From positions 22,892 to 86,891 of the IMG/VR virus record IMGVR_UViG_3300028797_000145: DNA of 64,000 bases; one strand, given 5' to 3'. Position numbers and translations under genes: made by a program. The notes beneath the pieces were generated by a model. That model had not been told where the DNA came from and searched no databases. It saw only the letters and a list, made by a program, of their open reading frames with translations. Source of the DNA: a virus (taxonomy: Duplodnaviria > Caudoviricetes). Positions 3,786 through 61,861 of this stretch are shown piece by piece; the stretch's first letter is position 1, and every line of letters begins with the position of its first letter.

Positions 3786-3791
3786 CGTTAT

Positions 3792-4133: not shown

Positions 4134-4415
4134 TTAATCATCTCCTTTCAAATTCTTCGAACCACACGTCGGACAATATACCGTTTTTTCTTCTGTCTCC
4201 ATAGGTAAATCACAATTAGAGCAGAAATATCCGATAATCTCCATATCTTCGTTTTCTATTGGAATCCAGCTTCCAACCTTCTGCTGTGACGTTGCGGGCG
4301 GCAATTTATCAATAGTTATGTGCATCCTTGCAATCATGTCATCATCTATGTAACCCCTCCATCTTGAAATATCTTTTTTTACAAGGTTTCGATCTACAGC
4401 GTCACAAGTATTCAT
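4134..4415 (-). CDS. Zn-ribbon protein
   Basis: CSNC...YCPTCG. Confidence 0.7.
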   Translation of the reverse strand: MNTCDAVDRNLVKKDISRWRGYIDDDMIARMHITIDKLPPATSQQKVGSWIPIENEDMEIIGYFCSNCDLPMETEEKTVYCPTCGSKNLKGDD

Positions 4416-43800: not shown

Positions 43801-45922
43801 TCTGTAATTTGTTCTTATACTGAACAAGCTTATCAATAATTAACTTAATACCAACGACCCCACCAGCAGTAGCACCAGCTCCAACAATATCTTTGAATGT
43901 CAACGACTTAAGCATGTCCATGATGCCTTTTACAGCTGGTTTAATAGCCTTAAAAGCATCTTTAACAATCTGCTTAAAGTTATTGAATACATCTCTAACG
44001 TCTGTTAAGAAGTCTTTCAAATCAGGTGATAAGTTACTGAACAAATCAGCATCTTTATTACCCTTCATGAATGCTATGATCTCGTTAAACTTCTCAACAA
44101 ATGCGTCCAAGCCGCCTTTAATTAACTCAAATATACTAATTCCGCCACCAAATACCTGATAGAATGTTCCGAGAACATCTATAAGAATAAGAAGAGCTTT
44201 AGTAACTATGTTGATTGCTATAGAAAGTAGACCGAACCAATCGATACCTTTCTTGGCTTCATCTCCATTAGCGGATGAAAACATGCTCTTAATCTTCTCT
44301 TTGATGGTTTCAATAAGCTCAGGAATGTCTTTACCAAAATTAGCCTTGAATCGTTCGTTGATTGCGTTAAGACTTTGCTCAACTTGTAATTTTATTCCAA
44401 CGAAACCTTCTTTAATCTCAGCAAGTTTCTTAGACCATTTGGTATAGACATTAAAGTTGCTGTAATACTCAGAAATCTTGTCTCCGAGATCTCCAGCCCA
44501 TCTAAAAATTATTTTGAACTTGCTAAGGATATCGGTTAACCCGGGTTTAAGGATCTGGAACAAAGTAGAAGCAGCCTTAACCACAATACCAAGCGCAGAC
44601 GCTAATCCTTTAGCAGCTTTTTCAACATTAACCAAGATCATTCCGTCTCGGTCAAATACTTCGGTATTGGTCTTAACCTTATCCAAAAATCTTTGAATAT
44701 CATTTATTACATCAGAAGGGAAAGCGGATTTAATACCAGCAAATACGGCTTTAATAACCTTACCAATATTACCAACAACCCCTCCTATAGATCGTAAAAT
44801 ATCGAGATGGAGACCTCTGCTAAGAAATTCATTAACGAACTCAAGGCCCTTCCTTAAGTTCTTCAAAGTATCCCCGATAAATTTATCCATTCCACGGTTA
44901 TCAGAAATGGAATTGAAAAACTCAACGGCATTCTTTGAAAGTGTTCCCATAATATTGGAAACATTCTCAAATATAGCATTATCTGCCAAAGACTTCTTAA
45001 ACTGATCGACCGCGCCCGTTATAGCATTAAATGTGTCTCTGGCGTACTCAAGACCAGGTGTATAGAATTCAGCACCTATTCTTGAAAGCGCTGCCTTCAT
45101 GTTTAATAATGCACCTGTGAAGGTCTTGTTTGCATCTTTCGCATGCTCCCCAAATGCATCATCCATAGCCTTGGCAAACATTTTGAAATCAATCTTACCT
45201 TTGGAAACCATCTCACGAATTTCGGCTTCCGACTTACCTAGGCTTTTTGCTAACGTCGCAGCTGCATTAAGACCTCTAGCAGAGAACTGTTGTAACTGCT
45301 GAGCATAAAGTCGACCATTACCAGCTACGGTTGTAAAGATATTGGAAATATCCTCATACGAACTGTTAGTCATCGCTGCCACACCAGATATGCCTCTAAG
45401 GGACATCTTCATTTCATCCCCAAGTTTTACCTGTGAAGCAACCAATTGGGATGCTGCCTTAGCCGCTGCATCCAAACCATAAGCCGTATCTTTTACACCA
45501 TAGTTAATGTCTTCTTTAATATCTTCCCAAGCAACACCAAGACCTTCCAACTGGAATTTTGCAGCCTCTATGTTAAGTGCTCTGTTCTTACCTCCAGTCA
45601 TGATCTGACCAATAGTAATATTAGCCAAACTCTTAGCAGCGTTGATAGCTTCGTTAGTCAAATTCTGTAATACAGTAGCTCCAACTATTCCCATTGAAGA
45701 CATTCTATATGACACCATGTCAATAGCTTGTCCAATGCCATCAAGATTAATCTTGTTCGCCATTTGGGTGATCTTCTCGAATCCTTTTAGGCTTATGTTG
45801 TTCAAGCCATTTAAGGATTTGTCGAGATTATTAATCGAATTCAGAGTAGTCTTGATACCCTGTTCAAATTTTTTGTTGTCGAATTGCATCTGGACAACTC
45901 TGTTATCGACTTGTTTACTCAT
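40826..45922 (-). CDS. tape measure protein
   Basis: 1698 aa, helical, Ala/Leu/Gly-rich; GLDAAAKAA..SGVAAM tape-measure domain. Confidence 0.95.
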   Translation of the reverse strand: MSKQVDNRVVQMQFDNKKFEQGIKTTLNSINNLDKSLNGLNNISLKGFEKITQMANKINLDGIGQAIDMVSYRMSSMGIVGATVLQNLTNEAINAAKSLANITIGQIMTGGKNRALNIEAAKFQLEGLGVAWEDIKEDINYGVKDTAYGLDAAAKAASQLVASQVKLGDEMKMSLRGISGVAAMTNSSYEDISNIFTTVAGNGRLYAQQLQQFSARGLNAAATLAKSLGKSEAEIREMVSKGKIDFKMFAKAMDDAFGEHAKDANKTFTGALLNMKAALSRIGAEFYTPGLEYARDTFNAITGAVDQFKKSLADNAIFENVSNIMGTLSKNAVEFFNSISDNRGMDKFIGDTLKNLRKGLEFVNEFLSRGLHLDILRSIGGVVGNIGKVIKAVFAGIKSAFPSDVINDIQRFLDKVKTNTEVFDRDGMILVNVEKAAKGLASALGIVVKAASTLFQILKPGLTDILSKFKIIFRWAGDLGDKISEYYSNFNVYTKWSKKLAEIKEGFVGIKLQVEQSLNAINERFKANFGKDIPELIETIKEKIKSMFSSANGDEAKKGIDWFGLLSIAINIVTKALLILIDVLGTFYQVFGGGISIFELIKGGLDAFVEKFNEIIAFMKGNKDADLFSNLSPDLKDFLTDVRDVFNNFKQIVKDAFKAIKPAVKGIMDMLKSLTFKDIVGAGATAGGVVGIKLIIDKLVQYKNKLQMLLNFFGLSDGKTKYVSRLGESLNTVLASTSTAITQFTQSMKVNQLKTIAITMAILAGSILVLSSINTEGLTTGLAAVSALLWELVAVIKVLEKTYFFGGGRGYLEVGTTLLLLSVSVGILASSLKKLSRIEPDRLETAFGVLTSMFVELGAALYLLSKYITDMPKVGATLLAIAFTIKIITSALSSMAKIAASGQLISALMGLTIVLAEIAYFAYFLSENESQFLKGAASLLLFAVALNLMMIPIIELALISAGGQLIQAITGITVLLGEIIAFSAIMEENNSGFMKAAASLIIFAVALNLMTVPLLAIAAMQAMTGKIGEAFLALSGIIALMVALMFFATEMGDMKSFAGMAASLILFSVALNLLVIPLQSLASIQAITNQLGPAFLALSGILALMIAMIFFADQMGDMTNFAIMSASLILLAVALNALMVPLMTLSMMSTKGLVKAVVALAAILAVLAGFLKICSGLVEAAAVLLALGAAIMLIGAAVMFAGVGIGALGIGIYAVVLAFTTLLETIQKFRAEIFYMSIDAALAIATFIVTLGSQAPAMGEAVTQIIIAACDALLGAAEKIVSTLWTLWIMLLEHMAKNAPKMAKSLIEIVFGILTTLIDGLTEKVPILAQSLYNFCMTVISELTKLMRQAPLDLIDIFFGGGFKAKKNSGKKLTDYFKDIFKSNKDNEDMKEAGEATADGLIDSAAEKIQSKDSQDKMSNSLTGLLSGSAEDMENDSSIPDAMTNISEKGIAGFEDPLNITNGESQTMASLAGYTQDGFLNNIDTSAFYNSGSGAMGSWLQGAKDKGGIASPSKEAMKLAEWIDKGFAKGLNENSYAENASIEKMGNILGTMSDATDMMQNFQMPSLGRALKTLFESDSLLNDDLNPTITPVLDLSNVSQGFSSLNSMFSSQRSLALAGEAAYMQDAGRRLSMELQNKNNDTTNNGINALGNKLDRLGDAILNKQIVLDSGEVVGGLADPMDRALGIKMIRAQRGGRR

Positions 45923-46296
45923 CTCTTTGTCACCTCATCCCATGCTTGATCAGCTATCATGTCAAACAACGGTTGAATAGCAGGGTTAATGTAGTCTCGT
46001 CCTTTTATGTATCTTCCTCTGGACGTTGTATGGCCATACTGCAAAATTATTGCTATAGGCTGACCATTTTGTATGTTAGTGTTATACCACGTTATGGTTT
46101 GACCCTTATTGTCTTTCTCAATAACATACTTCCAAGAAGCCGCAGTTAAGCCAGTTCTCTTAGGAGTAGCTTCTGCTAACAACTCAACTCCTAATTTTCC
46201 GTACTTATCTAACTCACTAGCACCGAAAACACCTAAAACATCCTGAAGATAGCTTCTTGTAGCCGAAAAGTCACCTTTTTGTTTAAAGGTAATCAT
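45919..46296 (-). CDS. HK97 gp10-like tail completion protein
   Basis: TPKRTGLTAASW...ILQYGH...GRDYINPA. Confidence 0.7.
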   Translation of the reverse strand: MITFKQKGDFSATRSYLQDVLGVFGASELDKYGKLGVELLAEATPKRTGLTAASWKYVIEKDNKGQTITWYNTNIQNGQPIAIILQYGHTTSRGRYIKGRDYINPAIQPLFDMIADQAWDEVTKR

Positions 46297-47003
46297 TTAA
46301 CAACCTCACAGAAGTCCAGGCTGATCCAACCAAGACCTGATTTCAATTTACCCCAACCGGATTTTGATCCATCTCCATCTTTCTTTTCGATGATGGTAAA
46401 CACTCCAGCACCGGTAAACTTTCCAGTCTTGTCATAGTTCTTTCCAGGACCTTTTCTGATGTTGAGGTTATTGATCGAAACTTTTACCTTAAACGAATCG
46501 TCTTTCTTCTCTTCGACTTTCGACTCTTCCTTTCCATTTTGAATGGATTCAGCTTCTTCAGTCTTCTTAGTTGATACTGCTTTCTTGTAAAGCTTTTGCT
46601 CTTCAGCTCTTCTCTTAACCAAACCAGATAAGACTTTGCCTCCGGCTTTATTGTAAAGAGTGATGGCGTCACCAATCTCCTCGACAGTTCTGCCATTGCA
46701 AAGAGTCTTAAGATTCTTGCTTCCGCAATTGTAAGTAAAGCTTACCAATGCATCAAACTGGTTCTGGTTGAACTCCTTGCCGATCTTAGTTACAGCATTC
46801 TCGGAAGATTGAACGTCTTTCTTGAGATACTCTTCGGCTTTCTGTTTAGTAATTGTCATACCTTCGGATACGTCGGCGCCGTAATGTCCATAGCCGATAG
46901 TCCAATATTTCTCAGTCTTAACCGGCTTGTAGGCCGTAAGCCTAAGTCCCTCATACTTCTTAATAAGGTTTAAGCCCTTTGTAGATGTTTTCATATAAAT
47001 CAC
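46293..47003 (-). CDS. endolysin: GH24 lysozyme plus SH3-like cell-wall-binding domain
   Basis: IKKYEGLRLTAY...WTIGYGH; NQNQFDALVSFTYNCG; GLVKRRAEE; LNIRKGPG...WGKLKSG.GWISL. Confidence 0.9.
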   Translation of the reverse strand: MIYMKTSTKGLNLIKKYEGLRLTAYKPVKTEKYWTIGYGHYGADVSEGMTITKQKAEEYLKKDVQSSENAVTKIGKEFNQNQFDALVSFTYNCGSKNLKTLCNGRTVEEIGDAITLYNKAGGKVLSGLVKRRAEEQKLYKKAVSTKKTEEAESIQNGKEESKVEEKKDDSFKVKVSINNLNIRKGPGKNYDKTGKFTGAGVFTIIEKKDGDGSKSGWGKLKSGLGWISLDFCEVVK

Positions 47004-48136: not shown

Positions 48137-48535
48137 TCATCCCTGGCCCTGAGGAGCCAACGTAAGATCTGTAAGTCTGTATACCTTCCTTACAGTAGCG
48201 TAATCTTGTTTCTCAGCCACGACTGTAATAGTCTGCTGATCCTTATCTCTAATCAGAAGAACAACGATTCCGTCATCATCCAGAACAACCGGATTGGTTA
48301 CGGTTACTGTGATCTTTGCATCGGCTACGGCACCAGTATCAAAGTGCAGAACAATATAATGACCAACCTGCTCAGCTGGATTGCTAGAGAATCCAGTATA
48401 GTCATCAATATAGTTCAACGTACCGCTAATAACGTTGTTCGATCCGATCTGAATATTTGACTGGAGATCTGTTACATCCTTTCCGAACAGATCTACGCTA
48501 GTCGAAATATTGCTATCCGCCGATAAGCTCAGTGA
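48137..48535 (-). CDS. -1 frameshift extension (Ig-like?) of major tail protein
   Basis: -1 frame open across the MTP stop; no own RBS/ATG; paralog of 49886..50287. Confidence 0.75.
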   Translation of the reverse strand, partial: SLSLSADSNISTSVDLFGKDVTDLQSNIQIGSNNVISGTLNYIDDYTGFSSNPAEQVGHYIVLHFDTGAVADAKITVTVTNPVVLDDDGIVVLLIRDKDQQTITVVAEKQDYATVRKVYRLTDLTLAPQGQG

Positions 48536-49885: not shown

Positions 49886-50287
49886 TCAACCCTGGCCGTT
49901 CTCTTCACAAGTAAGACCACTCAGGCTGTATACTTTGGTAACGGATTCATATCCTTCTTTGCTCGCCACGACTGTTAAGGTCTGCGTGCTCTTATCCCTT
50001 ACACGGAATACAGCGATTCCGTCGGAGTCCAAAGTGGATGTGTTATCCATCGTTGCTGTGATGGTAACACCGTCCTCATCCGGAACTTCTGCATGGAATA
50101 CAAGGTAATTACCTTCCTGAAGATCAGGATCACCAGAGAATCCGGTGTAGTCATCCACATACTTCAGGGTACCGGTAATACCAGTTCCAGCACCGTTCAA
50201 CGAAACTCCGCTCTGAAGATCCGTTACGTACTTGCCGAACAGATCCTCAGACTCGGAAATGTTGAAGTCAATGGATAAGCGATTTAA
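49886..50287 (-). CDS. -1 frameshift extension (Ig-like?) of major capsid protein
   Basis: A_AAC_CCT heptamer immediately before capsid TAA; -1 frame open for 133 codons. Confidence 0.8.
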   Translation of the reverse strand, partial: LNRLSIDFNISESEDLFGKYVTDLQSGVSLNGAGTGITGTLKYVDDYTGFSGDPDLQEGNYLVFHAEVPDEDGVTITATMDNTSTLDSDGIAVFRVRDKSTQTLTVVASKEGYESVTKVYSLSGLTCEENGQG

Positions 50288-52296
50288 GGGTTTAAGTTAC
50301 CATCGGTGGAGTACACGGTCATAGCCGAGAAAGGCTTAACCAGTGCACCGGACATTCTGGTCTCGATCAGGTACTTCTCCTGGTTGTAGTCGATATCGAA
50401 GTCATCGAAGTAGTTGATCTCGCCACCCTTGTCAGTACCTACATTGTAATCCTGCAGGTTTACGATCACGCCGATAAGAGCCTTGTCTGCAGCGTCGATC
50501 TCAACGGTCTGGTTCTCCATAACCTCAACAGTTACAATCTCCTTAACGCGAAGCTTGGTAGCAAGCTCTGCCTCAGTCTTGAACAGAGGCTGACCCATCT
50601 TGTCTTCAAGCAGCAGCATCTCGGTAAGCACGTCTTCGGTAGTGAAGAAGGTCGGGTTTCCAGAACCCTTGTAGTTCTTACGAGCACGAATAACAGCCTT
50701 GATTACATTGTTGTAATCGCCGTTGATCGTTACCGGAACCTTAACATTGAACAGGTCAACATCGGAAGCGATAGGACGAATGTTCTGAGGATTGATCTTA
50801 TCTGCGGATACGTTGCTGCGGCCATCACCGATCAGGATCGCACGAGCGATTTCCTCATTCAGCATTACGCGCATCTCAGCCTTGATCCAGTTAACAACAT
50901 CGAAGTCGGTGATATCGACAATGTTGTCACGGTCCATCTTCTGTTTCTTGTAGATCGTGGTCGGATCGGTCTTTCTCTTCAGAGTAGAGAATACCTCGTC
51001 GATCTTCTCAGCACCGGTAACATAACCTTTAGCTCTTGCATCCTCAGCAGTGATGTCTGCGAATACAGACTTAATACGGCTAAACGGGCTCTTATGAACT
51101 GCGGACATAACCTTGGTTACCCAGGTCTGATCTCTGGAAATCCACTCAGGAGTGTTGCTAAGAGATCTGTAATCCGGGAACAGCATGGAAGGATCGTTGA
51201 AACCATAGGTCAGGTGCCCGGTAGGGGTCTCCATACCATCGGTAGGGGTGGAATGTGCCAGTACTTCCTCTTCACCATAGAAATCGTTGATCGTATCCTT
51301 CAGGGATCTGCGGTCATGCTTTGCGGCCTCCAGGATCTCCATTCTGTCGCTGTGGCAAAGGAAATCATCCTGTGCATAGCCGCTTTCAAAAATGTTGTGC
51401 TTCATTTCTTCGTCTCCTTCCTCGTCATCTTCATCTTCGTCGGTTACACCCTTCTCTTCAAGAGCCATACCGATAAGTGCATACATTGCATTCTTCTGTT
51501 CCTCGTTCATGGTATCAACCACGTCTTTGAGGGTCTTTTCATTGTCTTCATCTGCATGGGCAAGTGTCTTACTCATCTGTTTTTTACCTCCGTTTTTGTC
51601 TTCGTCTTCGTCGGATTCTTCCTCGACCTCGTCTTCAGGCTCATCCTCCTCTTCAGACTCTTCAACTTCTTCATCTTCCTCATCGGAATCTTCTTCGGTC
51701 TCTTCGTCTTTCTTAGGAACGGCCTTGATAGTCTTGGTTTCTTCCTTCTCGACTTCTACTTCTTTGACTTCGTCATCCTCATCGTCCTCTTTCTTTTTTT
51801 CTCCATCACCCTCGCAAGAGTGATAAAGCTCAAGAGGCTCTCCTGTAAAGATAACTCCGATCTCATCGTCAAAAGGTTCACCATGTTCAAGAGCTACGCG
51901 GTTAACTGTATCTTGATCGATAAACGCTCCGGGGTTTGCTCCCGCGAGAACCACACTAACCTCTCGAACCATTCCATGAAGGACATTCGAACCTTTCTGG
52001 CGTAACTGATTTGCGAATATGGAAAGTGAAACCACGTCACCGTGCTCGACTAAATGCTTCGTAGCCTGGCCCTTAGCACTGTCGTTAAACGAACAATACG
52101 CGTAAAGACCTTCATTGCGATTCTCCAAAACAGCATGACCTAAAACCATGTCAGGGTCATCATGAATATGACTCCAAACAAGAGGTACTGTCTTGCCATC
52201 ACAATCTTTGAACGCATCTTTGATGATGGTTCTACCATCGGAGCACAGCATGTTGTTTCGACTAGCCCATCCGCTAAAGTCAAACTTCATTGCCAT
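50284..52296 (-). CDS. fused prohead protease - acidic linker/scaffold - HK97-fold major capsid protein
   Basis: VPLVWSH..LGH...LSI...REVSVVLAGANPGA (HK97-type protease); E/D-rich linker; capsid core; GAGGAGG before ATG at 52296. Confidence 0.9.
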   Translation of the reverse strand: MAMKFDFSGWASRNNMLCSDGRTIIKDAFKDCDGKTVPLVWSHIHDDPDMVLGHAVLENRNEGLYAYCSFNDSAKGQATKHLVEHGDVVSLSIFANQLRQKGSNVLHGMVREVSVVLAGANPGAFIDQDTVNRVALEHGEPFDDEIGVIFTGEPLELYHSCEGDGEKKKEDDEDDEVKEVEVEKEETKTIKAVPKKDEETEEDSDEEDEEVEESEEEDEPEDEVEEESDEDEDKNGGKKQMSKTLAHADEDNEKTLKDVVDTMNEEQKNAMYALIGMALEEKGVTDEDEDDEEGDEEMKHNIFESGYAQDDFLCHSDRMEILEAAKHDRRSLKDTINDFYGEEEVLAHSTPTDGMETPTGHLTYGFNDPSMLFPDYRSLSNTPEWISRDQTWVTKVMSAVHKSPFSRIKSVFADITAEDARAKGYVTGAEKIDEVFSTLKRKTDPTTIYKKQKMDRDNIVDITDFDVVNWIKAEMRVMLNEEIARAILIGDGRSNVSADKINPQNIRPIASDVDLFNVKVPVTINGDYNNVIKAVIRARKNYKGSGNPTFFTTEDVLTEMLLLEDKMGQPLFKTEAELATKLRVKEIVTVEVMENQTVEIDAADKALIGVIVNLQDYNVGTDKGGEINYFDDFDIDYNQEKYLIETRMSGALVKPFSAMTVYSTDGNLNP

Positions 52297-53590
52297 TTTG
52301 AATTTCCTCCTCAGTATTAAATTGTTCTTCCGGGTACTCTTCTTGATACTCTTCGTCAGGTATGTCATACATTGCGTTAGGATCTTCACCAGTTGGTTCG
52401 CTAAGGTTGCTATTCCTCAACTCATCAGCCTTAGGATCGCTAGATGGCTTCATACCGATAACCTGACGAATCTCGTTAGAAGTCATGATCTCGTTCCGTG
52501 TAAACTTATCTGCAATCTCAGCAATCTGTGATACAGGTACCAGCTTAAACGGATCCCTGAAGAATTCTACGGACTGGCGTGGTGATCTGGAACGAGCTGT
52601 CTTAGAGAGGAACTTACGTTTCATCTCATCAGTAATAGCAGAAAGGATTGGCTCAATTGTACGATTGTAATAATTCATCATCGTATTCTCATCCGCAGTT
52701 CCATCTAATATTCCTTGTGTTAAACCTAACTGGCTGTAAAGCATACTCGTCAAGTACTCTACTTGGGACATTAGATTGTTCTCGATCGGACGGTTGAGCT
52801 GTGTTACTTTCTCAGTTCCATCTGTATACGCGATACCGTATTTCGAGCTTTCCAATTGCGCCTGGATGTCTTCCATCCTAGACTTTACGTACTCTCTTTT
52901 GGCCGGAGTTTTGATTTGGTACGGCAATTGGATTATTAAATCAAGCTTGTTGGCGCCAGTCTGTTCATCGATGGCATCCATTAAGCTTAACTTACGAATA
53001 AGTCTTTGCATGGTGGAATTAGGCTCATTCATTACTGAATATAGCGGATTTTCGATAATAGCCACCATGTGTTTGGGAAGTACTATGGGCTCACGTTTTC
53101 CGGTAAGCTCGTTGTAAACCTCCAGTCTAACTGTCTGCGGGAACCATTCGGTTACCCTTGCAGTCCTCATCGACAAAATATCGTATGAGTCAGATCTTGT
53201 TGGATTGCCTTTAGTCTCGACTGGAACCAAGGCTACACAACCTTCGTCCAAAAGGGACATTACCGCATCTTGAATAAATGCTCGCCCAACTTGATCAATG
53301 TTTGCTTCTACTGATAGACAGTTATTAAGTCCGGAATCTACGTCTTCCAAATATCGATCATTGTCATCGAGTCGTACGTGCTTGATGTCGATAGCAGCAC
53401 AATCCATTGCTATACGGTTATAGATTGAAACCGTAATGGATCTTTCAGCACCTCTAAATATTCGAACTCGATCTGGTCGATAACTTGATCCATAACTTGT
53501 AAATGAAGATTCATAAATTGTCGGATCTTTGTTACTAAAAAAAGCGTTCCAGGCGTTTTTAATCCTGGAACCAATAGTTACATCGCTCAT
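52280..53590 (-). CDS. portal protein
   Basis: SIYNRIAMD, NIDQVGRAFIQD, GIAYTDGTEK, MTSNEIRQ. Confidence 0.9.
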   Translation of the reverse strand: MSDVTIGSRIKNAWNAFFSNKDPTIYESSFTSYGSSYRPDRVRIFRGAERSITVSIYNRIAMDCAAIDIKHVRLDDNDRYLEDVDSGLNNCLSVEANIDQVGRAFIQDAVMSLLDEGCVALVPVETKGNPTRSDSYDILSMRTARVTEWFPQTVRLEVYNELTGKREPIVLPKHMVAIIENPLYSVMNEPNSTMQRLIRKLSLMDAIDEQTGANKLDLIIQLPYQIKTPAKREYVKSRMEDIQAQLESSKYGIAYTDGTEKVTQLNRPIENNLMSQVEYLTSMLYSQLGLTQGILDGTADENTMMNYYNRTIEPILSAITDEMKRKFLSKTARSRSPRQSVEFFRDPFKLVPVSQIAEIADKFTRNEIMTSNEIRQVIGMKPSSDPKADELRNSNLSEPTGEDPNAMYDIPDEEYQEEYPEEQFNTEEEIQNGNEV

Positions 53591-53615
53591 TTTGAGACTC
53601 CTTTACTTTTAGCAT

Positions 53616-54473
53616 TTAACGTTTTTTCTTAGCTAAAGCTTTTCCCATTTTAGCAAGGGGTGCATTCATGTAAGGATCCCCATACTTTTCTACTCTCTTT
53701 TGATAAGTTTTTTTATCAGTTTTGTACTTCTTCTGGAATTGCTTATTATCCATACTATTCCAATCGTTAATTGCTCTTTGAGTAGTTTTACTAACATTAC
53801 TTCCGGCCGTGAGTTTCTGTCCAGAAGTTTTCTTATCAATTCTCTTATTTTTTCTTTCAGCTCTTTTAATCGTAGACTTTCCTGCAAGATGTCCAACATC
53901 CTTAGCAAGACCAACAGCTCCTCCAGTAAGTATCCAGTCAACTGCTTCTTTACCACGAGTTGTTGTTCTTCCTGAAATTCTCGTGTGCGGGGTATTCACC
54001 CATTCTTTTCTAAAAACAAAATTTTCGATAAATTTGTCACTCATATCAGCTTTTCTCATCTTTGAAGCATATTCAGATCCGTATTTATGATTTTGAGCTG
54101 ACACGTTATGGATATGTTTTCCAAATCTTGTTCTAGAAGCATCTGCTAATTTTCTTTGTGTCTCAGCTTTAATATCCTGAGATGTTTTCATCTGTCCATA
54201 TCCAGCAAGTTCGGAAATTTTATTTCCAACCCCTTTAGCATTATGAGCTTTCTTAAATGGGGTCACTATTCTTTGCCCAAGTCCTTGCGCTCGGATCTTT
54301 GTTCTTTCAATAACCCCATAACGCTGACGACCACTATTTGTTAATGATCCGTCAGCATTTTGGAATCGTCTCTGGCCCCACTTTTGTCCTTTAATTCCAT
54401 GATGAGCGAGATAATTTTCATACATAATCTGTTCATCTGGATTAAGATAGATCATTCCATTAGCACTTATCAT
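53616..54473 (-). CDS. HHGIKG-motif protein 1 (DUF7211-like)
   Basis: YLAHHGIKGQKWGQRRFQNADGSLT. Confidence 0.8.
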   Translation of the reverse strand: MISANGMIYLNPDEQIMYENYLAHHGIKGQKWGQRRFQNADGSLTNSGRQRYGVIERTKIRAQGLGQRIVTPFKKAHNAKGVGNKISELAGYGQMKTSQDIKAETQRKLADASRTRFGKHIHNVSAQNHKYGSEYASKMRKADMSDKFIENFVFRKEWVNTPHTRISGRTTTRGKEAVDWILTGGAVGLAKDVGHLAGKSTIKRAERKNKRIDKKTSGQKLTAGSNVSKTTQRAINDWNSMDNKQFQKKYKTDKKTYQKRVEKYGDPYMNAPLAKMGKALAKKKR

Positions 54474-54493
54474 TTTTTTTCTCCTTTTTTATT

Positions 54494-55021
54494 TTAGCCG
54501 TTTTTGTAGTTGTATCTGATCTCTCGTCGAGTTGTATCGATGGTTATAGGCATGTCCATAAGAGCTTTTTGTCTTCCAGCCCACTTGCGACCTTCTGATC
54601 TGTAAGTGGATTGATTTTTAGCCAACGATTTTTTATATCTTTTCAAATCCTCTCCAGAAGAAATTGCATCTGATATCGAATCGAAAAATGCTTCTCCTGA
54701 ACCACGGTAAGATCCTGCCCCATGCTGCCAATCATAATTTATTTCTCTCGATCTTCTCTTATTATCCATATAAACTTTCCATGTATTTGATCTAGTGCCG
54801 TATTTGTTAAGGTCTTCTAAATCGTGTTTTGCTTTAGCAGCTCTGTAGTTAAAGTCTTCTCTTTTTCTATTGGCTTGCTTAGCTTTCTTATCTCGATATT
54901 TCTCTAATTTCTGAAGATGCTTTTTACCTTTTGGTGTTAATTTTCCATTGGAATATCGGTATCTCCTAACACCCCACTTCATTCCTTTAATGCCGTGGTG
55001 TTCCAAATATTCTTCGTTCAT
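54494..55021 (-). CDS. HHGIKG-motif protein 2
   Basis: YLEHHGIKGMKWGVRRY. Confidence 0.8.
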   Translation of the reverse strand: MNEEYLEHHGIKGMKWGVRRYRYSNGKLTPKGKKHLQKLEKYRDKKAKQANRKREDFNYRAAKAKHDLEDLNKYGTRSNTWKVYMDNKRRSREINYDWQHGAGSYRGSGEAFFDSISDAISSGEDLKRYKKSLAKNQSTYRSEGRKWAGRQKALMDMPITIDTTRREIRYNYKNG

Positions 55022-55035
55022 CGTGAGATGTCTCC

Positions 55036-56073
55036 TTAATAATATTGATATTTCTTTGGATTTTGTTTCATATCTTGCTCTGTATCATAACTGGATAATT
55101 TCAATGTAGCTACAGCAGCAGATCCCAAAGCAACATGATGCGGTTTCATAGCTTCATCTGCCAATACTCGTGCATTTGCTTTCCAAAAGTTTCTATTAAT
55201 TTCGGAATCGGCAAGTTTAGTTACTTGAGGACTTGTGATCTTTGCGTTATTGAACATAATGACGGCTTTAGTATTAAATCCACTAAAAGATGTATCATTA
55301 AGATCTTTAATTCCGCTATAACCGCGTTTCTTAAGTTCATCGAAGAATGTTTGTCTTGCTTGCTCTTCAGCTGTGCCATCACCCATCATCGTGTTCGATA
55401 GGAAATTACCATATTTACCACGCCAAGGATGAGTCCAATCAATGGTTTGCTGATTATAAAAACTCGGATTGTTTTTCATTAATTCTTTAAAAACTTTCTT
55501 TCCGTTTCTATTACCAGCTATCTTCATATCACTCGCAGCGTTGTATGTGATCTTATTTTTATTAAATGCGCCAATTGTTGTTTGAGCTCTCCCCCACATA
55601 CCAATGTATTTTTGGTTATCTGCTTTACGATATGACATAAACCAATGTTCGCCAGCTCCCACTCTATCCGGATCGATATGTAGAGTTTGCATAGCTAAGC
55701 CTTTTGCAAGCTTAGTATCGAAATAACTTCTTCCAATTCGTCGACCTATGTAAATTGCTGCAGCCGCTCCCACGGCAATACCTGCACCAATTGCTATCTT
55801 CTTAGCGATTTCAGCTTTTCTTTTTGCAGCATCATCGGCATCTTTTTTAGACATTCCATATTCAGATTGGTACCTTTCGGAAGTGCTGTCGATGTATGAT
55901 TTTGAGATTTTGTTTCCGGCTTTCTGAAGTTTCTTTCCTAAAGCGGTTCTAGTACCGTCTGGTTTTTGAAATCGTCTTATGCCCCATTTCATACCTTTAA
56001 TGCCGTGGTGGGCTAGGTACATCTCATATTCCATTGGGCTGGAGAAATATACATTGTTACCGTCGCTAATCAT
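55036..56073 (-). CDS. HHGIKG-motif protein 3 with C-terminal globular domain (possible ADP-ribosyltransferase-like fold)
   Basis: YLAHHGIKGMKWGIRRFQ; LKKRGYSGIKDLND...VIMFN. Confidence 0.7.
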   Translation of the reverse strand: MISDGNNVYFSSPMEYEMYLAHHGIKGMKWGIRRFQKPDGTRTALGKKLQKAGNKISKSYIDSTSERYQSEYGMSKKDADDAAKRKAEIAKKIAIGAGIAVGAAAAIYIGRRIGRSYFDTKLAKGLAMQTLHIDPDRVGAGEHWFMSYRKADNQKYIGMWGRAQTTIGAFNKNKITYNAASDMKIAGNRNGKKVFKELMKNNPSFYNQQTIDWTHPWRGKYGNFLSNTMMGDGTAEEQARQTFFDELKKRGYSGIKDLNDTSFSGFNTKAVIMFNNAKITSPQVTKLADSEINRNFWKANARVLADEAMKPHHVALGSAAVATLKLSSYDTEQDMKQNPKKYQYY

Positions 56074-56080
56074 ATACCTA

Positions 56081-56614
56081 TCACCCCGCCATGTTCTTAA
56101 TAAAGTAAATCGCCATTGCAATCTGAGCTGCTGATGCACCAACCGCTAAAATATCTCCAGCGGTATCGAGATAATCTGCGGCTCTGTCTCTGCCTAAAGA
56201 AATCTGATCGGACTTCAAATTACGGTAATTTCGCTCGAGATTCATTCGATTCACTTTCTTCTGCAAATCCTGATCAGACATCTTTGAGACATCAAAGTCT
56301 CTGGCTATGATCTTATTCCTTTTTCTTTCAGCAGATTTTGAGACAGCTCTAGAAGCAGCTCTAGATCCTTCTGATCCGGCTTTAAAAGCTTTAGAAGCTT
56401 GATCATACTTAACAGCTTCGCCAGCTTTGTATTTGTTTTCGTTTTCTCTTCGTTTTGTATATGCTGCCAAAGTGTTATCATCCATTTTGGATAGACGTTC
56501 TTTTGCAGACTCTTTTTTGGATCTTCCTCCACCATTCCTCTGAAATGGTCTCTTTCCAGACCCAAAAGGATAACGACCAGAATGATGTGGCGTTCCGTAA
56601 TGTGCAAGGTACAT
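56081..56614 (-). CDS. HHGIKG-motif protein 4 (variant)
   Basis: MYLAHYGTPHHSGRYPFGSG. Confidence 0.75.
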   Translation of the reverse strand: MYLAHYGTPHHSGRYPFGSGKRPFQRNGGGRSKKESAKERLSKMDDNTLAAYTKRRENENKYKAGEAVKYDQASKAFKAGSEGSRAASRAVSKSAERKRNKIIARDFDVSKMSDQDLQKKVNRMNLERNYRNLKSDQISLGRDRAADYLDTAGDILAVGASAAQIAMAIYFIKNMAG

Positions 56615-56627
56615 TTTATGACCTCCT

Positions 56628-57182
56628 TTATTTGCGACTATGGGCATAGTATGCTCTAAGATTGCGAGCATCCATTTCATTCTTTACTCCCCAAAGAGCA
56701 TTAACTGCTTCCATTCCCAAGCCAGCAGCCGCAGCATAAGCTGCTGGTTTCTTCATTCCATTTTGATATAACAAAAACGCAACGGTACCGGTACCAGTAG
56801 CTATAGAAGTAGCTCTTCCAAGAGCTGCTCCAGAACCAGTAATAGTCTTTCCAGACTGATACAATCGCTTTCCTTTATCAGCTTTCTTATCTCTTTTAAG
56901 CTGATTGTAATCACGATTCATCTTGATCTTTGCGTCTTTTCGTTTTCCACGAGCTTCAACTAATTCTTTCTTGGAAACATTTTTGTTTCCGCTCTTCTTA
57001 GCTTCTTTATAAGCCTTCTTTTCTTTCTTATACTTAGCATCTGCCTCATCGTACTTTTTAGCAGATTCATCAAAATTCTTAACTCCTTTTCTTACATAAG
57101 ATCCATCATAATTTCTATACCTACGAACTCCCCATTTCATGCCCTTAACGCCATGGTGTTCCAAATATTCTGTTTCGTACAT
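56628..57182 (-). CDS. HHG(V)KG-motif protein 5
   Basis: YLEHHGVKGMKWGVRRY. Confidence 0.8.
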   Translation of the reverse strand: MYETEYLEHHGVKGMKWGVRRYRNYDGSYVRKGVKNFDESAKKYDEADAKYKKEKKAYKEAKKSGNKNVSKKELVEARGKRKDAKIKMNRDYNQLKRDKKADKGKRLYQSGKTITGSGAALGRATSIATGTGTVAFLLYQNGMKKPAAYAAAAGLGMEAVNALWGVKNEMDARNLRAYYAHSRK

Positions 57183-57195: not shown

Positions 57196-58929
57196 TTACC
57201 CAAAAGCTTCGATGTTGATCTTGTAAGCTATGAAAGCATCCATCATAGCTGCAACAGCATCGATCTTTTCGGAGTATCTCTTTTTGAGCAACTTTCGGTT
57301 TCCGTTTGTGTCCTCACTTACAATGCAGTTACCCATCGCGAATTCCATAAGCAGCTCATCAAACAGTAGCATCCTTTCAGACGCTAGTTTCTTAAGTTCC
57401 CCAAGCGGAACAGACTCTGTTTTAGCACCCTGGATAACCTTCTCTATACCAAATGGCCCATTCTCAGTAGCCCACCTAGCAACAAACTCTTTTGCATTAT
57501 ACGGATCATACCCAAAAGCTATAACATCGTATTCCATCTCAGTTATATGTGCATCAAGATCCTCGTACACTTCCATCATATTGAGCACAGATCCCTCCAT
57601 AATCACAAGGCTTCCTTCGTTAATGAAACCTTCATACTTATTTCGCATAGAAGGAGGGAGTTTCTGTAAAGTTAATGAGGAAATATAGTTCCTGGTCTTA
57701 ACTCCAAACATTCCACCAGGAAGAGGAAACAGAAATGTGAATGCACAGAAATCATCACCCTGAGATAAGTCAGCCCCCATAGCGCACTGGCACTGCCAAT
57801 AGCTCTTGTGCTTATGAGGCAACGTCTCCTCGTAGGTGAAGTAATATGTATAGCCTTCCATAGGTAAGCCAAATCTCTTCGCCAAAATATCGTTTCTGGT
57901 AGTAGGCGCTTTCTCGGCTCTTTCTACGTCAAGCTGTACTGTTTCGTAAGATATGGTTTTGCCAATGTTTGGCATTGCTTTAACCCACTTGGCGGGATCG
58001 TTTACCTCATCAACTGAATCAAGGCAATACCACCATATGGATACATGAGGAGCAAGATACTCTCCTTTAAGAATATCACTAAGCTCCATCTTGATGTCGT
58101 CACCACTTCCGTTTCTGACAGTACCTTCAGAACTTGTAGCAACTATTATGTAATCATCCAATTTAGACGCACCTTGCTCAATAGCACCTATCACGTCTTC
58201 TCGGATGTCTCCGGAAAGCCACTCATCAACGGTGGCAACTTTTACTCTTAAACCCTGTAGTTTATCAACGTTCATTGGTCTTACTTCAAGAAGAGAACCG
58301 GTAAGAAAATTCTCTATACCATTCTTCGTTGAAGCTAGTTTAACTCGATTGGCTCTGGAGCCAGTTGTGTTCTGTAAGCTTCCTTCAGTAAGGAACTTAA
58401 ACAACGGACCACGCGCTCTCGTAATTGCAGTCCTAATTGGAGACATGACTTCCTCGGACTGTTTCATTGTAGGAGCTGTTGTAACCTGGTGAGTTGTACT
58501 AAGATCAATGTTTTGGAAATATGACTGGATGCATGAATCATACAGAGATTTTGCACAGCCTCGTCCGACTATTAGATACTGTTTCTTCGTGAGACGTTTC
58601 TTTATAGTCTTAGTTTCGTACATCTTTAACTCTGGATTCCAGACTTCTTTATCTGCAAAATAGTACCATCCGAAAATCTGTTCGCCCCAGAGTTTGAATG
58701 TATCAAGGAGATTTAGATCCGAACCATCAGTAAGGGTTAATTCACCCTCGCAATAATTAATCCAGCCTTCTACTGCTTGATCATCGTAGTAGACTGCTGG
58801 ATTCTCTATCAACTGGTCGATACGGTTCATCTCCATTGAGACATAACGGTTAACCGGTATCTCTCTCGCTAAAACGGCATCTCTAAACATGCCGTAGTAT
58901 TTCGGTACGGCTGTATTAGAGAGTGACAT
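57196..58929 (-). CDS. terL: terminase large subunit
   Basis: LIVGRGCAKS (Walker A), VATVDEW (Walker B), GADLSQGDDF nuclease, KIDAVAAMMDA. Confidence 0.95.
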   Translation of the reverse strand: MSLSNTAVPKYYGMFRDAVLAREIPVNRYVSMEMNRIDQLIENPAVYYDDQAVEGWINYCEGELTLTDGSDLNLLDTFKLWGEQIFGWYYFADKEVWNPELKMYETKTIKKRLTKKQYLIVGRGCAKSLYDSCIQSYFQNIDLSTTHQVTTAPTMKQSEEVMSPIRTAITRARGPLFKFLTEGSLQNTTGSRANRVKLASTKNGIENFLTGSLLEVRPMNVDKLQGLRVKVATVDEWLSGDIREDVIGAIEQGASKLDDYIIVATSSEGTVRNGSGDDIKMELSDILKGEYLAPHVSIWWYCLDSVDEVNDPAKWVKAMPNIGKTISYETVQLDVERAEKAPTTRNDILAKRFGLPMEGYTYYFTYEETLPHKHKSYWQCQCAMGADLSQGDDFCAFTFLFPLPGGMFGVKTRNYISSLTLQKLPPSMRNKYEGFINEGSLVIMEGSVLNMMEVYEDLDAHITEMEYDVIAFGYDPYNAKEFVARWATENGPFGIEKVIQGAKTESVPLGELKKLASERMLLFDELLMEFAMGNCIVSEDTNGNRKLLKKRYSEKIDAVAAMMDAFIAYKINIEAFG

Positions 58930-58940: not shown

Positions 58941-59777
58941 TTATTTAATCTTCTTAAAAATCCCAGAGATAACCTTTGCTCCTTTTTGAGCAGCTTTAGC
59001 AGAAGACTTAAACTTTAACGCTTTCATAGCTTTGTTCAAGGACTTAACTACTTTTATTCCGGATGCTGCAGCTTCTCTTGCGCTCTCCTGTCTATCTTCT
59101 TCTGTAGGAGAACTTGAAGAGGTTTTAGCATCCTGGGCTTCTTTCATTCTGGATGCTTCTGCAATCTGTGAAATAGAATATGTCTGATGCTGTCTACCTG
59201 GAGCCGAGCCTCTTACAGCTCCGCCTCTATTTCGAATATGCAAGGGCTTGGCTACTTCAGCTCTATAAGTAATTTGTCCATGACCGCCGCCAGAACTTGA
59301 ACTACTTTTAGAGCTAGAAGCACTCGATCCGGTAGAACTTGTAGATTGTGAAGAAGATCCGCTAGATCTACTCCCGGAAGAACTTCTTCCAGACGAAGTG
59401 GATTTAGTAGTCTTTGTTGTTTTCTTTTTGTCCTCTTTGTCAGTCTTAACTTCTGTAGTTGTAGTAGTTCCAGAAGGAGTGCTAACAGAAATCTTTGATG
59501 CTGAAAGTTTCTTTGGAGATGATGCTACAGCAGACCTATACTCAGAAGGCGTCATAGTCTTACCTTTGTAAGTGACATTTCCAGGAGATCTCTGAATGGC
59601 TTTCTCTCGTCTCATCTGCTGAATCGAGTACGCTCCCTGTCTCTTTGCAAATTCCTGATCAGATCCTCTAAAATTGGACCTGACCGTAGAACTTTTTTTT
59701 AGGTCTTCGGGATAGATGTATCTATTTCCCTCTTTCCTAATGTACTTGTGGTTGTGCCACTCTCTTGTATAAGCCAT
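58941..59777 (-). CDS. basic Ser/Thr-rich low-complexity protein
   Basis: N-terminal WHNHKYIRKEGNRYIYPED; S/T/K-rich body. Confidence 0.7.
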   Translation of the reverse strand: MAYTREWHNHKYIRKEGNRYIYPEDLKKSSTVRSNFRGSDQEFAKRQGAYSIQQMRREKAIQRSPGNVTYKGKTMTPSEYRSAVASSPKKLSASKISVSTPSGTTTTTEVKTDKEDKKKTTKTTKSTSSGRSSSGSRSSGSSSQSTSSTGSSASSSKSSSSSGGGHGQITYRAEVAKPLHIRNRGGAVRGSAPGRQHQTYSISQIAEASRMKEAQDAKTSSSSPTEEDRQESAREAAASGIKVVKSLNKAMKALKFKSSAKAAQKGAKVISGIFKKIK

Positions 59778-60613: not shown

Positions 60614-61069
60614 TTAGGCTATTCTCGATACAGTCATGTTGGCATTCTGTACATTAATCGCAAGCGCCGGCGTTGTTCCATCGTTTGCCGCTGCTACACA
60701 TTCTACTGAGATGTGATTGCAACATCCTTTAGGAACATCGATGATTGCGGTGGATGTCACATTAAAGTAATCTCCAACCGCCGCCGGAGTAACAATTGCT
60801 CTACTTGTCATTACTGCTTCGCCATCAATGGCTAAAGCAATGGCAATAGGACCAACTGTTTCGCCAGTAGGAATTGCAATGTTTGCATTGAATGTCACCT
60901 GGTATCTTGCAAAGCTACTGCAAGGATTGTTGACGATACCCCTGAGAGTTACAATACCACTTTCATTTCTGTGGTATACATATCCTCTTCCGCAGCCAAT
61001 CGTAGTATTAAGAATTACTGGCTGATTCGGATTCACGATCTGAACGTCGTTATAGGTAAACTCTGCCAT
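60614..61069 (-). CDS. module protein E: beta-sandwich (BclA-CTD/C1q-like by pattern)
   Basis: YQVTFNANIA; alternating beta pattern. Confidence 0.65.
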   Translation of the reverse strand: MAEFTYNDVQIVNPNQPVILNTTIGCGRGYVYHRNESGIVTLRGIVNNPCSSFARYQVTFNANIAIPTGETVGPIAIALAIDGEAVMTSRAIVTPAAVGDYFNVTSTAIIDVPKGCCNHISVECVAAANDGTTPALAINVQNANMTVSRIA

Positions 61070-61084: not shown

Positions 61085-61861
61085 TCAGAAACTTCCGCAA
61101 CCGCAGCCATAGTTCTGCTGGCAGCAATTAGGATTCTGTACCACATAAGCCGGACGAGGAGTCGGAGCCAGGTATTGCTCGAGAGCTGCTGTCTGTGCAG
61201 CATTGTCTGCAAGCAACTGAGAAGTCTGAAGATTCTGAGATGCAGCCAGCTGAGCCATTGTCAACTGATTCTGAAGATCTGCAATCTTCTCATTCTTGGC
61301 ATCGATCTTGTCCTGACACATCTGGTCAAGAATTCTCTGAGTTGAAGCGGTGTTTGCAGTAAGGACATCACGAAGTGCTTCGTTTACTGCTGCACGATCG
61401 GCGCATGCTTCTTGTGCAACCGCGTACTTAAGATCGGCAATGGAAGAACGATTCTCGCAACAGCAGTTCTGAAGTCCCATAGAAAGGTTATTCAGTTGAG
61501 TTGAAAGAGCTGCAGTATCTGCAAATCTCTGGTTCATTGCATCCATTGCACGACCACATGCAGCTACTTCAGCATTCGAGAATCCGTTGTTTACGGATGA
61601 CTGCAGGCTCGAAAGCTGACTGGCAAGAGCAGCATCTGCGAACCCTCTGTTTACATCGGTCTGGGTCTGGGTGTTGTAGAAATAAGGCATTGCAGCATCA
61701 TTTCCACCCCAACCGCCAAAGCCGTTGTTGCCCATAAGAGCAAAGAGGAACAGAATTACCCACCAGCCGTCGCCTCCGAAACCATTACCCCATCCGCTGT
61801 TTCCCATAGGCGATACGGGCATAACGATTCCGTTACCATTTGTTGAATCAACTAAAGACAT
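61085..61861 (-). CDS. module protein D: Gly/Trp hydrophobic segment, long coiled coil, Cys clusters
   Basis: GGDGWWVILFLFALMG; QNCCCENR; C-terminal CCQQNYGCGCG. Confidence 0.75.
   Translation of the reverse strand: MSLVDSTNGNGIVMPVSPMGNSGWGNGFGGDGWWVILFLFALMGNNGFGGWGGNDAAMPYFYNTQTQTDVNRGFADAALASQLSSLQSSVNNGFSNAEVAACGRAMDAMNQRFADTAALSTQLNNLSMGLQNCCCENRSSIADLKYAVAQEACADRAAVNEALRDVLTANTASTQRILDQMCQDKIDAKNEKIADLQNQLTMAQLAASQNLQTSQLLADNAAQTAALEQYLAPTPRPAYVVQNPNCCQQNYGCGCGSF

Follow-up and report, generated by a model that had tools for sequence, protein, structure and literature searches.

An L-x-H motif shared by a protease-capsid polyprotein and a row of tagged basic proteins: a candidate head-cargo system in a gut siphophage

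Introduction

Can one short motif connect the maturation of a phage capsid with the loading of other proteins into the head? This question is raised by a 64,000-nucleotide stretch of a Caudoviricetes genome (IMG/VR record IMGVR_UViG_3300028797_000145, positions 22,892 to 86,891; hereafter the window), which contains the head module of a siphophage belonging to the 1706 / FP_oengus / actinophage supercluster. The original prediction held that L-x-H is the recognition site of the phage's prohead protease, and that five proteins encoded between TerL and the portal bear the same motif in a tag that packages diverse effectors for ejection.

The model for such a system is phage T4, whose capsid-targeting sequence (CTS) was reportedly described by Mullaney and Black in 1996. 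The CTS is found on internal proteins IPI-III and Alt and is removed by the prohead protease gp21, which cuts at L-x-E (PMC9026906).

Protease, linker and capsid in one reading frame

At 50284-52296 (minus strand, as for all features described here), this gut phage encodes a single 670-aa polyprotein composed of a protease, a linker and an HK97 capsid domain. Residues are counted from the ATG at 52296, which corresponds to the homologue-alignment output numbers minus 31. Its homology to the supercluster fusion extends over the full length, and a single frame encodes both protease and capsid. The polyprotein matches phrog_3270 (E=1e-207), the major capsid and protease fusion of the 1706/actinophage supercluster, and has relatives in 249 phage records; in 230 of them the match spans 80% or more of the 670-aa query (211 with a 701-aa version of the query).

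The protease domain (residues 1-138; 51883..52296) ends at LEH|G. By both HMM and fold it is an S78 (HK97-type) prohead protease with an assemblin-like fold: it matches Peptidase_S78 (PF04586) at 25.1 bits, above the cut-off of 21, and its AF2 model (pLDDT about 90) matches herpesvirus assemblins in Foldseek, namely the KSHV (2pbk), EBV and HCMV proteases. H54, S92 and H107 are invariant among 46 homologues, and we infer that they are the catalytic residues.

The capsid domain is an HK97-fold major capsid protein, again by HMM (PF05065, 34.8 bits) and by fold, with Foldseek matches to the GTA, Gordonia phage Cozz, Muddy and HK97 capsids. The predicted mature protein (S349-P670; 50284..51252 including the stop codon) would start after LAH|S349 and comprise 322 aa (36.2 kDa); H348 and S349 vary little or not at all among the 46 homologues. 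Between the two domains lies a linker or scaffold region, predicted to be excised (residues 139-348; 51253..51882), with a net charge of -61 and two delta-like helices.

L-x-H sites in the polyprotein

Five L-x-H sites, each followed by a small residue, had been proposed for the linker, and all five were confirmed on translation: LEH-G (51883-51891), LYH-S (51820-51828), LAH-A (51556-51564), LCH-S (51352-51360) and LAH-S (51253-51261), the last of which would release the capsid. A sixth, LGH-A (52135-52143), lies inside the protease domain, and its invariant His is probably catalytic. One more conserved site of the hydrophobic-x-His type, MKH-N (51397-51405), had escaped the first reading. The candidate cuts in the linker fall after H159, H247, H300 (MKH), H315 and H348.

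These sites are far more frequent than composition predicts. Six L-x-H-[S/A/G] motifs are present in the polyprotein against 0.16 expected from sequence shuffling, a number reached in 0/20,000 shuffles (p<5e-5), and the linker alone has five against 0.06; plain L-x-H would be expected 0.93 times. Genome-wide, L-x-H occurs 31 times in 24,444 aa, and 12 of these occurrences are in the polyprotein, the five tags described below and the tag of an RNA polymerase (RNAP). The portal protein has none. Among all 400 a-x-b patterns, L-x-H ranks first in the polyprotein and in its distant actinophage homologues JoyLin gp18 and Tokki gp14, in both of which HxD comes second.

Position is conserved as well. 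Of 121 homologues, 119-121 retain the His columns 138, 159, 300, 315 and 348, S/A/G follows the His at 349 of 376 linker sites, and every polyprotein site falls in a low-pLDDT or inter-helix segment of the AF2 model. Proteases of this clan cut at sites with a hydrophobic P3 and a defined P1; those of herpes assemblins are (V/L)-x-A followed by S. The polyprotein shares this layout, including the small next residue, along with the fold of the clan SH enzymes (herpesvirus assemblin, HK97 gp4), but differs in that its protease is fused to the capsid substrate. A P1 His preference has, to our knowledge, not been described for clan SH prohead proteases. Taken together, enrichment in three distant homologues, positional conservation, flexible location and the P3-hydrophobic/P1 layout make it very probable that the fused S78/assemblin-like protease cuts at L-x-H plus a small residue, in keeping with the original prediction.

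Tagged genes between TerL and the portal

Five genes, d1 to d5, lie between TerL (57196..58929; Pfam TerL_nuclease 6e-34, phrog_9 2e-100), the upstream boundary of the array, and the portal protein (52280..53590; PF04860 4.5e-18, phrog_12 1e-42). As predicted, all five have Y-L-(A/E)-H near the N-terminus. The motif said to follow it, HHG(I/V)KG-x-KWG, is present in d1, d3, d4 and d5, while d2 has HYGTPHHSGRYPFGSG in its place. The tag corresponds to Pfam DUF7211 (PF23847), a 25-position HMM with a gathering score of 27 bits, and the four genes with the canonical motif are its only four matches genome-wide. The system had been put forward as undescribed for the family, which is half right: the tag is already a Pfam entry, one of unknown function, and none of the papers searched mentions it.

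d1 (56628..57182; start picked by ribosome-binding site) encodes a 184-aa basic protein (pI 10.0, net +24) with the tag at residues 1-35 (57078-57182; LEH at 57156-57164; 42.3 bits). d4 (54494..55021), whose ATG at 55021 is preceded by a strong SD site, encodes a 175-aa basic protein that likewise has the tag at residues 1-35 (LEH at 54998-55006; 41.2 bits). The tag follows a leader in the other two canonical members: 22 aa in d3 (55036..56073; 345 aa, basic; LAH at 56008-56016; 33.6 bits) and 24 aa, similar to that of d3, in d5 (53616..54473; 285 aa, basic, net +36; LAH at 54402-54410; 30.1 bits). d3 also matches phrog_7502 (1e-26); its residues 92-110 form a hydrophobic segment, its C-terminal domain resembles ReqiPepy6 gp020, and its atlas neighbours are DUF7211 proteins only.

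The remaining gene, d2 (56081..56614; 177 aa, basic; LAH at 56600-56608), has no Pfam match at the DUF7211 threshold. Its tag, MYLAH-YGTPHHSGRYPFGSG, is an RNAP-type variant with a 6-residue insertion. The body contains the conserved motif NRxNLExxY and has a hydrophobic helix at its C-terminus, and the AF2 model shows a disordered tag followed by two long helices. This is the body family with the widest distribution: 33 of 80 related loci encode homologues, which there bear type-1 tags; the same body family is thus found with either tag type.

Past the tag, no two of the five bodies are significantly similar (BLASTP E>0.3), which upholds the claim of unrelated C-termini. The array therefore presents a common short leader on unrelated proteins beside head genes, as in T4. 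That these bodies are diverse effectors was not borne out: Pfam, PHROG and atlas-neighbour comparisons found no enzyme or toxin domain in the five, d2 is modelled as long helices, and two of them, d2 and d3, have a hydrophobic segment. All five have a pI of 9.8-10.3, in contrast to the acidic linker.

Are the tag and the polyprotein site the same?

The tag consensus is (acidic)-(Y/F)-L-x-H-(H/Y)-G-(I/V)-K-G-M-K-W-G-x-R-R. Across 365 tags, collected with a search pattern that did not demand L-x-H, L is kept in 96% and H in 100%. Tags and polyprotein sites have in common P3 Leu, P1 His, acidic residues at P5-P7 and a hydrophobic or aromatic P4.

This resemblance could be a coincidence, in which protease sites in the polyprotein happen to recall unrelated structural L and H residues in DUF7211. 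Only two residues are shared, the next one differs, and the link was noticed post hoc. Against this, the tag's two invariant N-side residues are the top of 400 patterns, a chance of about 1/400, the acidic P5-P7 and the P4 preference are shared too, and tag and polyprotein closely co-occur. We regard coincidence as very improbable.

The side following His is where the two differ. In tags the next residue is always H/Y/F/W, followed by Gly, a combination absent from the polyprotein site contexts (sets of 376 and 302). Beyond the His, the tags thus depart from the polyprotein sites with which they had been equated, and for this reason the tag may not be a protease substrate. Most of its conserved part is C-terminal to the putative cut and would not be removed by it, and in some proteins a tag stands at the very C-terminus; both features are at odds with a simple leader that is cut away.

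The tag could instead be a docking peptide that is never cut, one that mimics the protease site or binds the capsid lumen, the portal or the acidic scaffold, so that the proteins are packaged unprocessed. The aromatic residue or His after the tag His (tags 100%, polyprotein sites 0%) fits this possibility, since an aromatic residue there could block hydrolysis, as do the conservation beyond the putative cut, the tags at the extreme C-terminus of some proteins, and d2 and the RNAP, in which only two residues precede the tag L. It accounts less well for an L and H as invariant as the Gly/Trp core, and for P5-P7 being acidic as in the polyprotein sites. Multi-tag proteins, with up to five tags spaced about 224 aa apart, also argue against it: they resemble polyproteins, and their units are separate genes elsewhere. 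We consider a tag that is never cut unlikely. L-x-H is mildly depleted in the tagged bodies (17 against 28 expected, P=0.016), which weakly favours the cargo reading.

Genomic context and a tagged RNA polymerase

Where a locus is long enough, tag and fused polyprotein almost always occur together, in phages ranging from those of Firmicutes to those of Actinobacteria. Of 80 IMG/VR loci retrieved through the tag and nothing else, 57 contain the fusion, the others stopping before the polyprotein position or being ambiguous (e.g. L033); among 73 loci from bacterial genomes, 35 have at least 6 kb of room, and 32 of these contain it. JoyLin, Tokki, ReqiPepy6 (with seven tandem tagged genes), 1706 and FP_oengus have the same layout. 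All sampled loci come from one phage supercluster, so the co-occurrence may partly reflect common descent.

The phage's YonO/crAss-like RNAP (YonO/RdRP-like; phrog_4291, weak PF05183 match), encoded outside the window at the other genome end, has the d2-type variant tag at its N-terminus. In six phages across two phyla the RNAP has this variant at its N-terminus. Given a tag like that of d2, the RNAP would travel in the virion and could start transcription after delivery.

The tagged proteins might also be intracellular membrane or assembly factors, or RNAP partners, with the tag binding a common partner of phage or host origin. Hydrophobic helices occur in several members, which are annotated as membrane proteins (Tokki gp8, ReqiPepy6 gp020), and the RNAP bears the tag as well. 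Such a role sits poorly with the late head operon as the place of the tagged genes, which in all lineages examined lie between TerL and portal, with the charge complementarity between the tagged proteins and the scaffold linker, and with the GenBank product names of two tagged proteins, 'structural protein' for Lactococcus phage 1706 gp07 and structural for ReqiPepy6 gp019; we find it quite improbable. Head-module position, co-occurrence with the polyprotein, the tagged RNAP, the basic proteins set against an acidic linker and the 1706 gp07 label together make it plausible that the five proteins are head cargo. The proposal of a packaging tag is sustained to that extent; its identity with the capsid sites is not, owing to the residues after His.

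A possible mechanism and its relatives

In the mechanism that we propose, the capsid protein would be made as a 670-aa polyprotein of S78 protease, hyper-acidic disordered spacer, two delta-like helices and HK97 domain. In the procapsid, the protease would cut on the C-terminal side of His where (L/V/I/M)-x-H precedes S/A/G/N: at H138 to free itself, at H159, H247, H300 and H315 to chop the spacer, and at H348 to release the 322-aa capsid protein. The basic, mostly helical d1-d5 would use the DUF7211-type tag as a portable address into the assembling procapsid, most likely docking through its L-x-H part on the polyprotein protease and/or its basic part on the acidic scaffold. They would remain in the head as the acidic fragments exit and later be expelled with the DNA, and, judging from their hydrophobic segments, d2 and d3 may act at the host membrane. 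The motifs, their statistics and conservation, and the co-occurrence of tag and polyprotein are observed in the sequences; cleavage after His, encapsidation, ejection and any cutting of the tag are predicted steps. To the whole T4-like explanation, from an L-x-H-cutting protease through tagged cargo and ejection to a virion RNAP, we give an even chance.

As with the T4 CTS, variable basic proteins share a short, portable N-terminal leader with a protease P3-x-P1 motif. T4 internal proteins are packaged and ejected with DNA, as is predicted here. The T4 protease is S77 with P1 Glu, whereas here it is S78, fused to the capsid, with a putative P1 His. The T4 leader is removed, while the ~35-aa tag, most of it beyond the putative cut, would remain; it also occurs internally, in tandem and C-terminally, with an aromatic residue after His unlike the capsid sites. 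No Pfam or PHROG match pointed to homology with T4 IPs or gp21 (S77).

Other systems offer partial parallels. The prohead protease of the giant phages phiKZ and SPN3US cuts proteins of the head and of ejection, virion RNAP subunits among them, at (S/A/G)-x-E (PMC5694885, PMC7411985, PMC10052503). There too, head-loaded proteins and RNAP share a protease motif with capsid and scaffold, but these are jumbo myophages with a separate protease, another motif, propeptides that are removed and proof by mass spectrometry. The N4 vRNAP and crAss-like gp66 are likewise single-chain phage RNAPs, presumed to be capsid-carried and injected; no common tag is known to have been described for them, while packaging is here suggested by the tag. 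MuF minor head proteins, polymorphic toxins and SPP1 gp7 occupy a similar niche beside the portal, with variable C-terminal modules delivered with DNA. Here a peptide tag, not a MuF carrier, would do the loading, and a Pfam scan of d1-d5 gave no Phage_Mu_F match.

Implications

If correct, these findings would assign a function to a very large family, as DUF7211 counts 52,360 cluster representatives at E<=1e-3, and a new P1-His specificity to HK97-type prohead proteases. With the P1-His rule, mature capsid ends would become predictable across hundreds of 'capsid and protease fusion' genes. It would also explain how a widespread supercluster of Firmicutes and Actinobacteria phages could carry its own RNAP into the cell. 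Our overall picture is of a very large Gram-positive-host lineage (about 52,000 tag-bearing protein clusters) in which one portable ~35-aa peptide, gated by a His-cutting protease, loads siphophage heads with a changing cargo, including an RNAP and membrane-active helices, that is delivered with the DNA; we hold it tentatively, with somewhat less than even confidence. Should it be true, phages of lactococci, Faecalibacterium and actinobacteria could be loaded with foreign proteins by way of a short tag, which would serve gut and dairy phages as a natural, programmable protein-delivery address.

Head module and neighbouring genes

The virus record holding the window is complete (86.9 kb), and nearly all genes lie on the minus strand. 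TerL (57196-58929 (-)) is followed by five tandem genes, d1 (56628-57182 (-)), d2 (56081-56614 (-)), d3 (55036-56073 (-)), d4 (54494-55021 (-)) and d5 (53616-54473 (-)), then by the portal gene (52280-53590 (-)) and the frame of a 670-aa polyprotein, whose start at ATG 52296 (-) was placed by its ribosome-binding site. Genes 3' of the polyprotein encode a tail terminator, the major tail protein and a tape measure of 1698 aa, identifying the phage as a siphophage.

Several neighbouring genes have features of their own. Immediately upstream of TerL, a 278-aa basic, Ser-rich protein (58941-59777 (-)) has the N-terminus WHNHKYIRKEGNRYIYPEDL, lacks an LxH tag and gave no Pfam, PHROG or NCBIfam match; it may represent another head-module leader type. 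Two small paralogues of 104 and 93 aa (49886-50200 (-) and 48137-48418 (-)) have Y-(V/I)-DDYTGFS... in common and flank the connector and tail genes, one directly after the capsid gene and the other after the major tail protein. These may represent decoration or Ig-like modules. A putative lysozyme-like gene with an SH3-like C-terminal end, judged from its sequence (46293-47003 (-)), sits between the tail chaperone genes and the tape measure (40826-45922), an odd position for a lysin. Further along, 60614-61069 (-) and 61085-61861 (-) encode conserved proteins (phrog_20016 and phrog_16490) whose matches assign no function; the latter is rich in Gly, Trp and Cys and carries a C-terminal CCQQNYGCGCG motif.

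L-x-H sites in the protease-capsid polyprotein

The polyprotein joins Peptidase_S78 and Phage_capsid domains in Pfam and PHROGs searches (phrog_3270, E=1e-207). Its AlphaFold model predicts a well-folded protease (residues 1-133), a disordered stretch (134-255) and two helices (256-281 and 315-340); the N-arm is floppy, and the HK97 fold begins at about residue 390. Foldseek matched this model to HK97-type capsids and herpesvirus assemblins. Among solved structures, no sequence relatives of the polyprotein were found, and neither solved relatives nor the accessible literature provided a measured mature-capsid N-terminus.

All five L-x-H sites that the original prediction placed in the linker between protease and capsid translate exactly as described. 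The pattern L-x-H-[SAG] occurs six times in the polyprotein against 0.16 expected from shuffling (none of 20,000 shuffles reached six), and five times in the linker alone against 0.06 expected. When all 400 a-x-b patterns were ranked without bias, LxH came first in this polyprotein. The homologues from Curtobacterium phage JoyLin and from Arthrobacter phage Tokki independently put it first as well, with H-x-D second, which gives a fuller motif, L-x-H-(S/A)-D. The sites also proved conserved in homologous linkers: His columns 138, 159, 300, 315 and 348 are kept in 119-121 of 121 homologues while the surrounding linker varies, and 349 of 376 linker sites have S, A or G directly after the His. 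Every site in the polyprotein falls in a segment predicted to be flexible or to lie between helices. A sixth LxH (LGH-A) holds the invariant protease His H54 and is not a cleavage site; M-K-H-N (residues 298-300) is an extra site that the original list lacked.

Proteases of this clan typically recognise sites in which P3 is hydrophobic, P2 is free, P1 is defined and the cut is followed by a small residue, as in the herpes assemblin site (V/L)-x-A|S. The T4 gp21 site is L-x-E (PMC9026906). On the strength of its statistics, its conservation and this clan-type layout, L-x-H in the polyprotein is very probably the cleavage site of the fused protease. Cuts after each His would release the protease as residues 1-138, followed by acidic fragments (21, 88, 53, 15 and 33 aa) whose net charges add up to -61, and would leave a predicted mature capsid protein of 322 aa (S349-P670, 36.2 kDa).

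A shared tag on otherwise unrelated proteins

The five genes between TerL and portal were each described as encoding Y-L-(A/E)-H near the N-terminus, and all five do, as Y-L-(A/E)-H-(H/Y)-G. The HHG(I/V)KG form attributed to all of them is present in four, which match Pfam DUF7211 above threshold; d2 carries a variant (HYGTPHHSGRYPFGSG). With that correction, the observation stands. Past the tag, the bodies of d1-d5 show no relationship by BLASTP, as originally described.

A search that did not require LxH collected 365 tags; 100% of them have His at P1, and 96% have Leu at P3. P5-P7 are acidic, as they are in the polyprotein sites. Of the 31 LxH occurrences in this phage's genome, 12 belong to the polyprotein, to the tags of d1-d5 and to that of the RNA polymerase. 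The next position differs: in tags the His is followed by H, Y, F or W and then by an invariant Gly, and an aromatic residue or His is absent after the site His in all polyprotein linker sites examined. The two sites are thus not identical, contrary to what had been proposed. Even set beside this difference, a coincidental sharing of two residues is highly improbable given the acidic context common to both.

The tag may be cut slowly, may be processed by the same enzyme to a different outcome, or may stay uncut as a substrate-like dock. A dock that is never cut is consistent with the aromatic residue or His after the site His, and with the roughly 25-30 aa of conserved tag that lie past the putative cut and would remain on the protein. 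Bodies that carry a tag contain fewer LxH than expected (17 against 28, P=0.016), a weak point in favour of their exposure to the protease. A permanently uncut dock appears rather unlikely, and the chance that the few residues before the tag His are removed is about even. A complex prediction with alignments, combining the protease domain, the delta/capsid region and a 40-aa tag, scored 0.00 and was counted neither way. In a few proteins the tag is at the extreme C-terminus; in some, such as the collected proteins P0140 and P0170, it lies within the last 45 residues. Likeness to a WXG/type VII signal was ruled out, as the tag has W-G and not W-x-G, and likeness to choline-binding or other cell-wall repeats was limited to Gly and Trp.

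The tag had been thought to load diverse effectors. No enzyme or toxin domain was found in any of the five bodies using Pfam, PHROGs, NCBIfam (no matches for d1-d5) and the ESM Atlas, in which the C-domains of d3 and d5 matched other DUF7211 clusters alone or gave weak matches below noise. An ART-PolyVal lead for these domains, at 0.82, was insignificant. A word-based homologue search found just two relatives of the d3 C-domain. Each of d1-d5 is basic (pI 9.8-10.3, net charge +16 to +36), and the excised linker is hyper-acidic. In the model of d2, the tag is disordered and leads into two long helices whose end is hydrophobic; d3 also has a hydrophobic segment.

The tag behaves as a module. Bodies of the d2 family are encoded in 33 of the 80 IMG/VR loci described below, there with an ordinary tag, indicating that tags are exchangeable. 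It is common for a protein to carry two to five tags; the median tag spacing of 224 aa is the size of a single-tag protein, and the units of these multi-tag proteins match separate genes elsewhere. Natural 'polycargo' proteins, 780-1570 aa long, have four or five DUF7211 tags at intervals of about 220 aa (for example, comparison locus L052:1571-4654 (+); P0124-P0136).

The variant tag is also found on a 952-aa YonO/crAss-like single-chain RNA polymerase (phrog_4291, E=0), encoded outside the window at 1437-4295 (-) of the full genome (L007, G000). This protein has a weak PF05183 RdRP match and a C-terminal HTH. It starts MELEH-YGMPRRSGRYPWGSG, and its N-terminal residues, MELEHYGMPRRSGRYPWGSG, constitute the variant tag seen on d2. 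The same variant N-terminus occurs on the RNA polymerases of FP_oengus, ReqiPepy6, JoyLin, Tokki and 1706.

Distribution among relatives

The same gene order, with TerL followed by tagged genes, the portal gene and the fused polyprotein, is found repeatedly in different phyla. For example, JoyLin has tagged genes on both sides of TerL, Tokki has four, and Rhodococcus phage ReqiPepy6 carries an unbroken run of seven, each of which begins D-(D/S)-F-L-A-H-Y-G-V-K-G-M-K-W-G. A single tagged gene is present in FP_oengus and another in Lactococcus phage 1706, where it lies directly before TerL. These phages belong to an already recognised supercluster that shares structural genes and the YonO/crAss-like RNA polymerase (preprint 10.1101/842583). 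In the actinophages, an additional gene lies between portal and polyprotein (JoyLin gp17, L005:11367-11915; Tokki gp13, L006:9103-9837; ReqiPepy6 gp023, L091:10801-11451). The first two open L-x-H-Y-A-S and the third L-I-H-E-Y-D, a third type of LxH leader that the window lacks.

A search by the tag alone retrieved 80 IMG/VR loci, and the fused polyprotein is present in 57; the others stop short of its position or stay ambiguous, as in L033, where an inserted 598-aa gene follows the portal shortly before the end of the locus. Among 73 loci from bacterial genomes and MAGs, 35 had at least 6 kb of room, and 32 of these contain the polyprotein. One of the three exceptions is a deletion remnant. 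On a Blautia glucerasea contig, the prophage remnant L122 (13744-17697 (+)) retains a tagged gene, TerL and portal, with the first ~30 protease residues fused to a tape-measure-like protein (1318 aa, repeat-rich); its capsid gene appears to have been deleted. L153, L170 and L133 are ambiguous for co-occurrence.

Two tagged proteins bear virion labels: 1706 gp07 (tag at residue 32; 'structural protein') and ReqiPepy6 gp019 ('virion structural protein'). Although the evidence in both cases is the GenBank label, these annotations and the recurring co-occurrence with the capsid polyprotein make it improbable that the tagged proteins act in the cell and not in the virion.

Known systems and proposed role

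The tag is a Pfam domain of unknown function, with 52,360 cluster representatives in a profile search. DUF7211 and the motif letters appear in no paper of the library searched. In its proposed role, the system would work like the T4 CTS and internal-protein system and like the head proteins that phiKZ-type phages process. It belongs to neither family, differing in its protease family, its motif, the position of the tag and the sequence. Here most of the conserved tag would be retained past the putative cut, the reverse of the T4 CTS.

In summary, the tag and its L-x-H motif are real and conserved features at the sequence level, for which a head-cargo role is proposed. The tag would act as a portable address for the procapsid interior, with the polyprotein protease domain reading its acidic-aromatic-L-x-H part and its basic Gly/Trp part resting on the acidic scaffold. 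Cargo would remain when the linker fragments exit and would then leave with the DNA. This whole chain, from portable tag and procapsid loading to cargo retention and exit, is as probable as its failure at some step. If it holds, these phages would carry in their heads basic helical proteins, some with hydrophobic helices, together with their RNA polymerase.
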